A DNA stretch of 64,000 nt from Curvularia clavata. Lineage: Eukaryota. The translations under genes and the position numbers were made by a program. Below are positions 47,970 to 58,661 of the stretch, in pieces (the first letter of the stretch is position 1; each line of letters starts with the position of its first letter). The stretch is taken from assembly GCA_023920165.1 (NCBI GenBank), contig CP089276.1, forward strand, positions 1,116,001 to 1,180,000. The letters are read 5' to 3'. The notes under the pieces are model-generated. The model searched no databases. It was not told the DNA's origin and was given only the letters and a program-made list of their open reading frames with translations.

Positions 47970-47979
47970 ACCGGGCCGG
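47970..47979 (-). promoter_or_regulatory. Putative Zn2Cys6 binding site CCGGCCCGGT (copy 1, MFS promoter)
   Basis: ACCGGGCCGG on +; identical 10-mer in the other three cluster promoters. Confidence 0.65.
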
Positions 47980-48097
47980 CATTTGAAACGCGGGGTACTC
48001 CACGCATTCGGGAACCAAGTGGGCCTTGGTAAGAAGGGTGCTTGTTAAGTATAAGACTTTGTTCGCTCCCTCAAGCCACCTTGGCAGGGAAGAGGCC

Positions 48098-49901
48098 ATG
48101 GCTTCACCAAAAAACAACGACAACAAATTGGACCCCGCCGCTATGTACGGTGGGTCCGTCCAAGTCGAAGTGGGCACTGTGGAGGCGACACAACAACCAC
48201 AGTCCAAATGGATGAAGTTCTATCGAAGCGTCTTATTCCAGATGGTTCTTTTTGGAGCGTAAGTACCATTCCATCTTTGGGCGGAATAGCTAACTGAACT
48301 ATCGCGCAGGCTGTCACTGGTCGGCCCTGCCATGTCAGATGCCATCTCTAACCTGGGGGGTGGTGGTTTGTCTACGCCCTGGCTGGCAAATCTCGGACAG
48401 TCATTGAGTTACGCAATGAGCTTCTTCAGCACGATAATTGGAGGTCCCATCATCAACAAGATCGGTATCAAATGGGCTTGCTTGATTGCAGCACTAGCTA
48501 TGCCGCTACACGGATCAGCTTATTACGTGAATGCGAAATTCAAGAACGACGCATACCTCCTGACTGCCAGTGTATGTTCTCCAAGCCATTTGTTATGAGA
48601 TCTCAGCTTACGCCAGCAGCTCATTAAAGGCACAGCCTCTGGCTTCCTCTACGTTGGAGAAACAACAGCTATGCTTTCCTACCCACATCCCGAGGATCGA
48701 GGATTTTACCTTGGTATGGCCTGGTCTGAATTGTAAATTGACTTGTCGCTGATGAAGAGTAGGCATCTGGTCGGCCATGCGAAGCAGTGGCAGCGTGATT
48801 GGAGGTGCCATTAATTTTTCGAACAACCACACTGATTCAAAGGGCGGAGGTGTTGCGTGGGCAACCTATCTTATCTTTGTTGGTTTCGGTATGACAGAGT
48901 CTGAAGATGCATGGTGATCATGCTAACAATCAGTAGAGTGCACTGGTCTAGTGTGGGCTCTTTTGCTATCGCCAACTGCTAAAGTTCGTCGTAGGGATGG
49001 TACCAGACCAAGCCTCGCTGAATCCGTCTCGTGGTGGGAAGAAATTAAGGCTTTGGGGACCTACTTGAGTACCCCAAAGGTAGGCAGCGCTTGCTTGCAT
49101 CACATTATCGGGGCTGACCATACATTCAGACGTGGCTGATCTTCGTTCCCGCGTTCTACTCTTTCTTCTGTGGAGGAACTATGGGCACTTATCTGTCGCT
49201 TCACTTCTCAGTTCGCGCACGCGCTCTCTCCTCTTTTCTCGTTCGTAAGTATATCCCATCTCGCGTCTTTTTCTATCATCTGTTAACGTGCGTAGCGGTT
49301 CTCACCATTCCGTCTGTGATAATATTCGGAAAGCTTCTCGATGTGACTCGATGGCAGCAGCGGACCCGGGCACGGGCTGCGATGGCAGTATGGGGAATAT
49401 CACAACTGGCTTGTTTAATTTGGGTCGCGCTTGAGTACCATCTGCTGCCCCAGAAGATTGCTCTGGATTACAAACTGTAAGCCGCTAGCCGCCGCTTCTG
49501 AGGAACAATACTAATTTCGAGACAGTGAATCTGCAAAATGGTTCAGAGCATATTTTCCATATCTGGTTATTTTCGTCTCGTCATACTGGACCCAACTTAC
49601 CCTTTACTGGATTCTCAGCACATTCTCGGACGAGGTCACGGATGCTTCGCGATCCGGTGGTGTGTTCCGTGCTTTCGAAGTTGCGGGTCAAGCAGTCTCC
49701 TATGGGCTGAGCTCCGTGAAGCACATTGACCATGCCATCCCGCTCTACATCAACGTTGCTCTTCTGGTTTTCACGATACCCACTCTGTCTCTACTTATTA
49801 ACAAGATGCCAAGGGGTCCCAGAAGGCTTGTTGACCCTGAGGATGACAACAACAAAATTGACTTTGTATTCGAGGAATTAGAGTCTACGAAAACAAAATG
49901 A
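48098..49901 (+). CDS. MFS transporter, UNC93-like, multi-intron
   Basis: FYRSVLFQMVLFG, GPAMSDAISNLGGGGL, GGPIINKIGIK, LSYPHPEDRGFYL, VRRRDGT, FSVRARALSS, GVFRAFEVAGQAVSYG; several short GT-AG introns. Confidence 0.85.
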
Positions 49902-50772
49902 GCTCTATGTCGATCGGGACCTCAGATGTTGAGGAATCTAGGTCAGGGATCAGAATATGTATAAATTGCATATACATATAACTACTTCCTTTTTGCATCA
50001 ATATTGGACAGTGAGGAATCCTCTCTGCATGTGTGACTAGTGTACTCTAGAGCAACCTCCCGCCTAAAGACTCTGTTGAGAAATGCCTGAACGTCTGAAC
50101 CTCAGATCTGTATTGATTATGGTGAAGGGATATCTGGGTTCTCAACCCACGTACAATTATGAGGCGAATGGATGGAAAATAGTCCTGGAAGAACATGTGG
50201 ACATGTATTAGCCATAGTAGACAATTTTCGAGGCCATGTATTAGGTATCGATCAATATCCATTTGAAAAGCAATGATTCTCGAACCTTTTCCATCTACAT
50301 TACGAGGATCGGAGCGAGAGGTGTTAGTGCAGTTTTTTGTGCGAGCAATCACCATTACTATATACAAAAAACGTTCATGACATCCATCGATGCGATGTTA
50401 TCGTTGGCCCAAGATAATTCAAATGGGTCTATGCAAATATATGTTCTGATGGGCTTGTATTGTGATTCTGCGCAACAAATTCCCTATAGTATGCATTCAC
50501 ACTAGAAACATGTCGTGAATGTGTATCCGACCCGATCAAGCTGCAGAAGCTCTGGGCAAACATTTTCCCCCAACATCTCAGCGATATCATGCCATCGTCC
50601 CACCAAGTCCACTGCAGACCCAACAACCTGCAAAACCCGCTCTCTGTAGTCCAATCTCTTAGCCTTCTTCCTTGCACAAAACGCCAAATGTGGCTCGTTT
50701 GGGATCGGTCTGCCCCACCCAGACCGGCAGATAACAACATCAACTGTGATCCTACCGAAGCCGTCATTAAAG

Positions 50773-50782
50773 CCGGCCCGGT
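50773..50782 (+). promoter_or_regulatory. Putative Zn2Cys6 binding site CCGGCCCGGT (copy 2, oxidase 1 promoter)
   Basis: Exact 10-mer about 140 bp upstream of the ATG at 50921. Confidence 0.65.
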
Positions 50783-57421: not shown

Positions 57422-57725
57422 TATCCGAGTACCGAGAGTAGTATAAATTCTAGTAGTGTATTGATGTCATGCATAAGCTTCGCGCATGCGCCTTCTGAAT
57501 ATAGTGTTTTCTTTTAGTAAATCGCTCAGGCACCCGGGGCAAGTCTGAATACCTTAATTGCCTCTTGGCCGTTGTATAAGGAAGTTTACTCCAACTGCTC
57601 ACCGCTGCTTCAAGGCGGTGCTCTTCATTGCAACCAGCAGATCATGGTTGATACACATGGCCCAGCAACTGCAAACAAGAATAATCTTAGATTATTTCCC
57701 TTTTTTCATTTTTCACGTATTACAT

Positions 57726-58454
57726 TCATGCCGACTTCGCCACAATCGCCTTCGCCATATCCACCAAGCTCTCCTCCACAACCTCCAGTTTCGCATCATT
57801 GAAGATATCCAAACAAGGATCATGCTCATACACTGCACTCCACGCACCCCTAAACCCCACCTTCGTTGCCGCAGTAACATCCCACATATGGCCGGCTGCA
57901 AACCACTTGATGTCGTTTTCACCCAGCTTATCCCACATGACACGGTAGGCAGCAGGAGCCGGCTTAGCCACCCCGACAGAATCACAGCTAACGAGGTTCT
58001 CAAGCGGCATGTGCAGATTGGCGCGCTCAAAGTATCCACTCACTCGCTGGATATCGCCCGTTGTGAGCGCCCAAACAGTAAACCCATTGTCGCGTAGAAT
58101 CTGGAATGCCTCGTGGGTGCCCGGGCGCATCTGCAGCGCGGAGTAGCCCTCAACGCACTTCTCTCTTTCTTCATCTGTAAAGATACTTTTGGGATTTTTG
58201 ACGCCACAGAGACTCAGGGTCCGGTAGAAGAAGCCCCGTAGGAGCTCTTTGTAGGGCTTGTACCCGCCCGAGATGGAGAAGAAGGTGAATTCGATCTCGG
58301 CGGCAGTTTGCCAAGTGAAGCCAAAGTGCTGGGCCGTGATTGTGTTTTGCTGCAGCTTAGGGCCGATGGTGGCTTCGATGGCGGAGTAGAAGGCGTCGAA
58401 GGAGACGCAGGTGCCGACAATGTCGAAGACGACGTGTTTTTTTAGCTGCGACAT
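57726..58454 (-). CDS. HAD superfamily hydrolase, haloacid dehalogenase type II-like
   Basis: Motif I VVFDIVGT, LTTGD, AKP, AGHMWD. Confidence 0.88.
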   Translation of the reverse strand: MSQLKKHVVFDIVGTCVSFDAFYSAIEATIGPKLQQNTITAQHFGFTWQTAAEIEFTFFSISGGYKPYKELLRGFFYRTLSLCGVKNPKSIFTDEEREKCVEGYSALQMRPGTHEAFQILRDNGFTVWALTTGDIQRVSGYFERANLHMPLENLVSCDSVGVAKPAPAAYRVMWDKLGENDIKWFAAGHMWDVTAATKVGFRGAWSAVYEHDPCLDIFNDAKLEVVEESLVDMAKAIVAKSA

Positions 58455-58651
58455 TTCCCCTCAAAGTAGTGTAGAAAAAAGCCAGTAGATTCAGAGGAGA
58501 GTAAGAGTCTAGAGATCAACTGTCCTCTGTGACGAGAATTATAAAATTGTATGATGTTTGTCACCTTAGGAGTGATTCCATACCAGCCCCTGGTCATACC
58601 ATATGGTAGTTAAAGTGATGTTACTTGGAGCTACCCCGCAACTTACCACGC

Positions 58652-58661
58652 CCGGCCCGGT
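58652..58661 (+). promoter_or_regulatory. Putative Zn2Cys6 binding site CCGGCCCGGT (copy 4, divergent HAD/oxidase 2 promoter)
   Basis: Exact 10-mer midway (about 200 bp) between the two start codons. Confidence 0.65.

Follow-up and report, generated by a model that had tools for sequence, protein, structure and literature searches.

A CCGG-N-CCGG word common to the promoters of a six-gene cluster of Curvularia clavata, a candidate site for the Zn2Cys6 factor encoded in the cluster

The Gal4-type site of zinc-cluster factors is CGG-N11-CCG. AlcR, which belongs to the alc regulon of Aspergillus nidulans, is an autoregulated pathway-specific zinc-cluster activator with CreA sites beside its activator sites; it binds as a monomer, to half-sites unlike those described below. 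The LeuB/Leu3 site is listed as CCG-N4-CGG (PMC12941744). The closest described system is the prn cluster of A. nidulans, where PrnA, a pathway-specific Zn2Cys6 activator encoded in the cluster, binds as a dimer to inverted repeats of the form CCGG-N-CCGG; these lie in intergenic promoters, some of which are bidirectional (PMC5983819; PMC12941744). The zinc cluster and/or the N-terminal tail of PrnA are crucial for this type of site (PMC5983819). Here we describe a 10-bp word, CCGGCCCGGT, that recurs in the promoters of six clustered genes (g1 to g6) within a 64,000-nt stretch of Curvularia clavata DNA (contig CP089276.1, positions 1,116,001 to 1,180,000 of the forward strand; hereafter the window), and that is a candidate activating element for the Zn2Cys6 factor encoded by one of them, g3.

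A second described system resembles a single gene of the cluster. AzhA (AN12472) of A. nidulans, an enzyme of 241 aa encoded by an intronless gene, opens the ring of the plant toxin L-azetidine-2-carboxylate, and its product enters the γ-aminobutyrate (GABA) route. Expression of azhA is induced by the substrate independently of PrnA, AmdR, AreA and CreA, and the study left the regulator and the uptake system unnamed (PMC8016842).

The 10-mer in the window and in two orthologous loci

The original prediction held that identical copies of the 10-mer lie in all four promoter regions of a six-gene cluster. Exact string search of the window recovered every one of these copies at the predicted position and strand (Table 1) and found no fifth, as the earlier inspection by eye had suggested. 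Chance expectation was estimated from 100 dinucleotide-preserving shuffles. For the exact word it was 0.05 per window, somewhat below the value of roughly 0.1 proposed before; the largest count in any shuffle was 1, and 0/100 shuffles reached 4. The degenerate form CCGGNCCGG occurred at the same four places and none besides (0.54 expected; 1/100 shuffles reached 4). When one mismatch was allowed, two extra sites appeared in the window, one being CCGGCACGGT in the g3/g4 promoter and the other lying at 63601-63610.

In all six genes the edge of the motif lies 96-205 nt upstream of the ATG, in agreement with the predicted range of about 95-205 bp. The g4 distance is the least certain of these because exons 1 and 2 of g4 are predicted only. 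Four sites cover six genes, as had been proposed, because the g3/g4 and g5/g6 promoters are divergent. RNA contigs reached 58564 on the g5 side and began at 58782 on the g6 side, and thus copy 4 lies outside the transcript stretches covered for g5 and g6, on their upstream side. The RNA contigs of run X19 break at 55535 and 58622, beside two motif copies. The flanks of the four copies are unrelated (56% mean column identity), with the ten motif columns and a few scattered ones being invariant, indicating that the copies are not pieces of a longer repeat.

A scan with g5 identified two orthologous loci, both on metagenome contigs: L001, comprising 20.7 kb of a 66-kb contig, and L002, a 6.2-kb contig. 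Start codons in both were read from the sequence and from tblastn matches. The L001 genes are arranged in the order g6 (-), g5 (+), g3 (+), g2 (-), g1 (+), which is rearranged relative to the window, and their products are 48% (factor) to 66% (g5) identical to the window proteins. L002 contains part of g5, a g2-like gene of the DAO family, a factor gene whose product is 29% identical to that of g3, and g1.

The word was found in both loci. L001 contains four copies of CCGGSCCGG (0.18 expected; 0/100 shuffles), and 4/4 are in promoters of orthologous genes: one in the g6/g5 divergent promoter, one 96 nt before the factor ATG, one 131 nt before g2 and one about 151 nt before g1. Both copies in L002 (0.07 expected) are likewise in promoters of orthologous genes, one 143 nt before the DAO gene, in a promoter common to this gene and the factor gene, and one 136 nt before g1. 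Thus the conservation in orthologous promoters that had been anticipated was found (4/4 and 2/2 copies in matching promoters), even though the surrounding sequences could not be aligned. Over the window, L001 and L002, 10/10 copies lie within cluster promoters, which make up 5% of the 91 kb, and about 60 kb of non-cluster fungal DNA (the window and the L001 flanks) contained no copy. CCGGCCCGGT is the sequence at nine of the ten sites, whereas the tenth has CCGGGCCGGT on one strand; the full palindrome ACCGGSCCGGT is present at 2/10. The motif was therefore kept through rearrangement and down to 29% identity of the factor.

The central part of the word, CCGGCCCGG, has the form CCGG-N-CCGG, an inverted repeat around a central C:G pair that can be read either as CGG-N1-CCG or as CCG-N3-CGG. 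This agrees with the earlier expectation of spaced CGG triplets, as for Zn2Cys6 factors, and corresponds to the PrnA type of site (PMC5983819). When pairs of CCGG were counted at spacings of 0-12, spacing 1 gave 4, 4 and 2 copies in the window, L001 and L002, respectively, whereas other spacings gave 0-2. Because spacing 1 was the sole enriched spacing, the signal is specific to the CCGG-N1-CCGG geometry rather than a reflection of general CCGG richness. We conclude that CCGGCCCGGT is a real cis-element, far beyond chance, with CCGG-S-CCGG as its core and CCGGT as the extended half-site.

Global MAFFT alignment of the orthologous promoters revealed no conserved block besides the motif, and the motif itself was misaligned for the g2 and factor promoters. 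Shared-word analysis was used in its place. In the alignment of the g1 promoters the sole invariant run was CACCGGGCCGG. The longest exact word shared in the same orientation was the motif word in 7/10 promoter pairs: 3/3 pairs of g1 promoters (11-14 nt), the g2 promoter of the window versus that of L001 (11 nt) and 3/3 pairs of factor promoters (10-11 nt). In the remaining three pairs the site was inverted or the promoters were too diverged for sharing in the same orientation. The orientation of the T end relative to the gene was kept in 3/3 g1 promoters (window, L001 and L002), 3/3 factor promoters and 2/3 g2 promoters, the L001 site before g2 having the same orientation as copy 2 of the window.

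The factor promoter was particularly constant. In the window, as in L001, 96 nt separate the end of the motif from the factor ATG, the orientation is the same, and the 11-mer TCCGGCCCGGT begins 107 nt before the ATG. A second site with one mismatch, ACCGYGCCGG, is present between the main motif and the factor ATG in both loci, as the variant listed in Table 1 and as CCGGCGCGGT at L001 10984-10993, and the two align. This arrangement would fit the autoregulation that had been suggested.

The earlier claim that the motif marks the cluster boundaries fits the comparison of the loci. When L001 was compared with the window by tblastx, homology was found solely at L001 7847-18199, which spans g6, g5, g3, g2 and g1. 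Genes for a mannitol dehydrogenase and an O-methyltransferase lie in the left flank of L001, while the window flanks encode a Kelch-repeat protein and a different methyltransferase. Because homology is limited to g6-g1 and the flanks differ, the core moves as a five-gene unit. One limit concerns the number of genes: neither the 20.7 kb of L001 nor L002 contains g4, and hence the conserved core is five genes, not six. g4 looks like a lineage-specific recruit that borrowed the promoter of the factor gene.

Cluster members are also near each other in several named genomes, in which adjacency was taken from locus tags and not from promoter DNA: Bipolaris maydis (BM1_01421 and 01424), Ascochyta rabiei (EKO05_0006150 and 0006152), Didymosphaeria variabile (N0V89_010249 and 010253) and Pyrenophora teres (CFE70_003036 and 003038), in addition to C. 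clavata itself (yc1106_04110 and 04112). By their locus tags, contigs of Clathrospora, Setomelanomma and Polychaeton have the cluster too. The locus tags of the protein matches place the cluster in many Dothideomycetes, among them cereal pathogens, for example Bipolaris, Pyrenophora, Parastagonospora and Ascochyta.

Candidate reader of the element

A Pfam scan of 41 ORFs (open reading frames), selected from those of at least 80 aa in the 43-64 kb part of the window, identified g3 as the sole regulator encoded in the cluster. Its N-terminal tail and zinc cluster, RPTKKR..ERQRAVRAC.ECRRLKEKCE.G.PC.RCRHLRR.C, are nearly invariant in 14 orthologues, and the L002 factor, at 29% identity, retains the core ERQRAV.AC..CRRLKEKC.GG..C.RC. 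The six-cysteine pattern is present in 18 of the 19 homologues listed for the g3 DNA-binding exon, and a conserved stretch that appears heptad-like in a by-eye reading of the alignment follows the zinc cluster.

We propose, with a probability of about 0.7, that CCGGCCCGGT is the upstream activating element of a conserved catabolic cluster and that it is bound by a homodimer of g3. Binding by g3, binding as a dimer, activation rather than repression, and the inducer are what we infer from the sequence. Each zinc cluster of the homodimer would read one CGG/CCG triplet of the inverted repeat, in the manner of PrnA. With one site per promoter and two promoters bidirectional, the permease, both flavin adenine dinucleotide (FAD)-dependent oxidoreductases, the HAD hydrolase, the aldehyde dehydrogenase and the factor itself would come under one signal, and the motif in the promoter of g3 would create a positive autoregulatory loop.

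Several points weigh against this assignment. Only two orthologous loci are available, and the motif counts cover the window, L001 and L002. In L002 the motif is 527 nt from the factor ATG. The T end does not keep a constant orientation in the g5/g6 promoter (window versus L001) or in the L002 DAO promoter. Moreover, PrnA-type factors read the same word, and so a paralogue could be the reader. The original prediction that the word is the site of the embedded factor was thus supported by footprinting as far as the site is concerned, while its attribution to g3 keeps the strength given above, as a PrnA orthologue could read it as well.

This last point leads to the strongest alternative, which we nevertheless consider rather unlikely, namely that the motif is real but is read by another Zn2Cys6 protein encoded elsewhere, for example a PrnA orthologue, with g3 binding otherwise or jointly. 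PrnA is documented on exactly this type of site (PMC5983819; PMC12941744). The two families are also easily confused, since UniRef and NCBI label the Pyrenophora orthologues of g3 as 'PrnA protein'. Furthermore, the orthologous promoters have other short words in common, including GTCACGTGT, GAGCCGGTT and CCCCRC. Against this alternative, the motif and the embedded factor gene have remained together despite rearrangement and a fall in protein identity to 29%, and the motif occupies a fixed place in the promoter of g3 itself. The cluster contains no proline oxidase or other prn-type gene according to the Pfam scan, in which no match to proline dehydrogenase was found among the 41 ORFs. In addition, for azhA of A. 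nidulans, the one related system studied, no induction by proline and no PrnA dependence were found (PMC8016842).

Comparison with the prn cluster reveals likenesses and differences. As in prn, the presumed pathway-specific Zn2Cys6 activator is encoded in the cluster, and the AreA and CreA overlay of prn (PMC5983819) has a parallel in the GATA and SYGGRG words of the window cluster. By contrast, the window cluster is without proline oxidase (PF01619) or Δ1-pyrroline-5-carboxylate dehydrogenase, its aldehyde dehydrogenase resembles succinate-semialdehyde dehydrogenase (SSADH), and its permease is of the UNC93/MFS type rather than an amino-acid permease. PrnA also uses CCGG-N6/7-CCGG direct repeats, none of which is present in the cluster promoters; the window contains a single N7 pair of CCGG, which lies outside the cluster at 44076, and a single N8 pair, at 58690. 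PrnA is expressed at a low level from a weak promoter (PMC5983819), whereas the g3 promoter carries the motif. No Aspergillus protein was present among the 19 matches to the g3 DNA-binding exon. Like the Leu3/LeuB and Gal4 sites, the word contains two CGG triplets, inverted or everted, whose spacing sets specificity; it differs from them in its PrnA-like spacing and overlapping CCGG half-sites, and in the asymmetry added by the conserved 3' T and the central C:G pair.

A less probable explanation is that the motif is conserved for a reason unconnected with zinc clusters, as the target of another class of factor or as a structural or GC-rich promoter element. The binding protein is not named by direct evidence, and the CreA-type and GATA words that accompany the motif indicate that the promoters are composite. 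However, a perfect CGG/CCG inverted repeat with sharp spacing specificity is the signature of a Zn2Cys6 dimer, and the motif is specific to a cluster in which the sole regulator encoded is a cluster-specific Zn2Cys6 gene. It is scarcely credible, and refuted as far as sequence analysis reaches, that the copies arose by chance or are what is left of a repeat or mobile element inserted in four promoters: the word is short and G+C-rich, and a 10-mer can recur in a repeat family, but the shuffles, the unrelated flanks, the same word in orthologous promoters of two independent loci and the confinement of all ten copies to cluster promoters speak against it.

Taken together, the sequence comparisons support a pathway-specific Zn2Cys6 regulon with a PrnA-type site, in which the type of site is already known and the regulon is new. 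Literature searches with the motif strings, the gene combination and azetidine plus zinc-cluster terms found no description of this regulon among the matches listed, subscription journals being outside their coverage. Of the 297 papers with a motif string, the 25 listed were all non-fungal; the gene combination gave 0 papers, and among the 15 listed for the third search the AzhA paper alone contained the azetidine terms. If g3 is the reader, the rare PrnA-type recognition mode would extend to a second regulon. For an uncharacterised cluster the proposal is both specific and inexpensive, as it involves a single 10-bp word, a single factor and six targets. The promoter and factor would also provide a compact inducible pair for biosensor work once the inducer is found.

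A possible substrate

g5 resembles AzhA in being an intronless type II HAD hydrolase of nearly the same length (242 versus 241 aa), and the SSADH-like aldehyde dehydrogenase of the cluster recalls the entry of the AzhA product into the GABA route. The A. nidulans study describes no cluster (PMC8016842), whereas in the window a factor and a permease lie beside the AzhA-like enzyme. The nearest Aspergillus relatives of g5 are 57-62% identical to it, and the g5-like Aspergillus proteins form a tight group of their own, 80-86% alike within sections Nidulantes and Usti. For each of five strains, the AzhA homologue of Table S3 and the protein nearest to g5 have different accession numbers, and 0/6 of the g5-relative accessions looked up are present in part 1 of 3 of that table (PMC8016842). 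A search of representatives at 50% clustering merged or hid the AzhA lineage, which was not separable there. The accession mismatch led us to regard g5 as a sister lineage of AzhA and not as a shown orthologue of AN12472.

On these grounds we consider it possible, though doubtful, that the cluster is dedicated to taking up a plant analogue of proline, opening its ring and assimilating it, the analogue being L-azetidine-2-carboxylate or a closely related compound. g3 would then be an analogue-sensing activator that reuses the CCGG-N-CCGG mode of PrnA for a proline mimic, with positive autoregulation and a CreA/GATA overlay. Uptake would be carried out by the UNC93-type permease g1, and the AzhA-like g5 would yield 2-hydroxy-4-aminobutyrate. 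The DAO-type FAD oxidases g2 and g6, which may be flavin amine or imino-acid oxidoreductases, would act after g5, and the SSADH-like g4 would generate a malate-type acid. If this is true, the cluster provides candidates for the regulator and the transporter that the A. nidulans study left unnamed. Should g5 act on azetidine-2-carboxylate or a similar plant toxin, the cluster would account for the ability of plant-associated fungi to detect defence compounds of this kind and to use them up.

Phosphonate catabolism was rejected as the role of g5 (a PhnX-type HAD enzyme), as the NCBIfam scan contained no phosphonatase family and the best match was to HAD type II. A contig search for bacterial relatives of g5 gave one weak match (31%), which was not used.

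Gene models and accompanying promoter words

Because the region is fungal and intron-rich, gene models were generated with a small dynamic-programming splicer and curated by hand (Table 1). They are supported by RNA contigs that end at predicted exon borders and by end-to-end alignments with orthologues (g1 and g3). RNA contigs from four runs were used, leaving aside depths and uncovered parts.

Table 1. Coordinates of genes, motif copies and accompanying words (window positions unless a locus is named)
Feature	Position	Strand	Details
g1, UNC93-type MFS permease	48098..49901	+	8 exons, 485 aa
g2, DAO-family FAD-dependent oxidoreductase	50921..52538	+	4 exons, 470 aa
g3, Zn2Cys6 transcription factor	52736..55427	-	6 exons, 788 aa
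g4, succinate-semialdehyde dehydrogenase-type aldehyde dehydrogenase	55668..57421	+	4 exons, 511 aa
g5, type II HAD hydrolase, 2-haloacid-dehalogenase-like	57726..58454	-	intronless, 242 aa
g6, second DAO-family FAD-dependent oxidoreductase	58867..60832	+	7 exons, 502 aa
Motif copy 1, CCGGCCCGGT	47970..47979	-	g1 promoter, 118 nt before ATG at 48098
Motif copy 2, CCGGCCCGGT	50773..50782	+	g2 promoter, 138 nt before ATG at 50921
Motif copy 3, CCGGCCCGGT	55524..55533	-	240-bp divergent g3/g4 promoter; 96 nt (g3), 134 nt (g4)
Motif copy 4, CCGGCCCGGT	58652..58661	+	412-bp divergent g5/g6 promoter; 197 nt (g5), 205 nt (g6)
Variant site CCGGCACGGT, one mismatch	55478..55487	+	g3/g4 promoter, between copy 3 and factor ATG
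GCGGGGTACTCCAC, pair of CreA-type SYGGRG hexamers	47990..48003	+	10 nt from copy 1; L001 counterpart GTGGGGTACCCCGC at 16329-16342
CCCCGC (CreA-type)	58634..58639	+	12 nt 5' of copy 4
CreA-type word	L001 9806-9811; L002 2121-2126		
GTCACGTGT (E-box CACGTG)	55545..55553	-	11 nt 5' of copy 3, factor promoter

Single g1 exons gave no Pfam match, and the family was assigned from full-length homologues, which carry PF05978 (UNC-93) and PF07690 (MFS_1). Residues 1-483 of g1 align with a 481-aa orthologue. A 1558-nt RNA contig of run X23 matches part of exon 1 through exon 8; its pieces at 48310-48571 and 49526-50061 lie 659 nt apart, which equals the summed length of g1 exons 3-7. Two g1-like UNC93/MFS proteins were found in Bipolaris maydis, with 77% and 66% identity to g1, and only one of them has a locus tag beside the HAD gene. 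The region from 45300 to 47900, about 2.6 kb upstream of g1, contains neither a Pfam-matching ORF nor the motif, and the g1 promoter therefore appears to be unidirectional.

Exon 3 of g2 matches PF01266 (DAO; E=5e-20), and a weak match to the same family was found for g6. RNA contigs of run X22 end at 52186 in g2 and at 59028 and 59574 in g6, in each case at an exon end. For g3, exon 2 matches PF00172 (Zn_clus; E=2e-7) and exon 4 matches PF04082 (Fungal_trans; E=2e-19), and residues 1-788 align with a 784-aa Bipolaris orthologue. The public model of g3 for Curvularia clavata has 705 aa versus 788 aa here, and orthologues have 772-784 aa. The product of g4 matches PF00171 (Aldedh; E=3e-135) and scores 496 bits against TIGR01780 (SSADH) versus 241 bits for glutamate-semialdehyde dehydrogenase; its best relatives of solved structure in the PDB are SSADHs, with human and bacterial structures at the top. 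The product of g5 matches PF00702 and TIGR01428 (86 bits), and its PDB matches are 2-haloacid dehalogenases. Residues 4-242 are 100% identical to a Curvularia clavata protein in NCBI. The public g5 model has 260 aa and another N-terminus, while the model here has 242 aa and an unspliced RNA contig spans 58201-58564.

The cluster promoters contain further regulatory words. In the nine cluster promoter regions of the window, L001 and L002 we counted 30 GATA sites (HGATAR) against 13.6 +/- 3.5 expected (0/500 shuffles reached 30), which hints at AreA-type nitrogen control. CAGATAACG is found 307 nt (window) and 314 nt (L002) before the g1 ATG. The CreA-type word SYGGRG showed no overall enrichment in the nine regions (21 versus 18.2). 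At 5/10 motif sites, the side away from the T carries CCCCRC/GYGGGG, in every case 10-14 nt 5' of the motif. These sites belong to the promoters of g1 and of g5/g6 in both the window and L001, and to L002, and in the g1 promoters of the window and L001 the CreA-type word takes the form of a palindromic pair, GYGGGGTACYCCRC. The fixed CreA-type word next to the motif suggests a composite activator/CreA element. By analogy with prn, the GATA and CreA-type words suggest that nitrogen and carbon status may be laid over the pathway-specific signal.

GTCACGTGT is common to the factor promoters of the window and L001 (about 10945-10953), 126 and 121 nt before the ATG and 11 and 6 nt 5' of the motif, respectively. 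GAGCCGGTT occurs in the factor promoters of both the window and L002, 79 and 98 nt before the ATG, respectively. A lone CCGG is present 21-22 nt, or two helical turns, beyond the motif at 4/10 sites (window 47945 and 55500; L001 10990 and 15521), on the T side in three of the four. At the right end of the window (62001-64000) the G+C content is 0.62, versus about 0.50 elsewhere.

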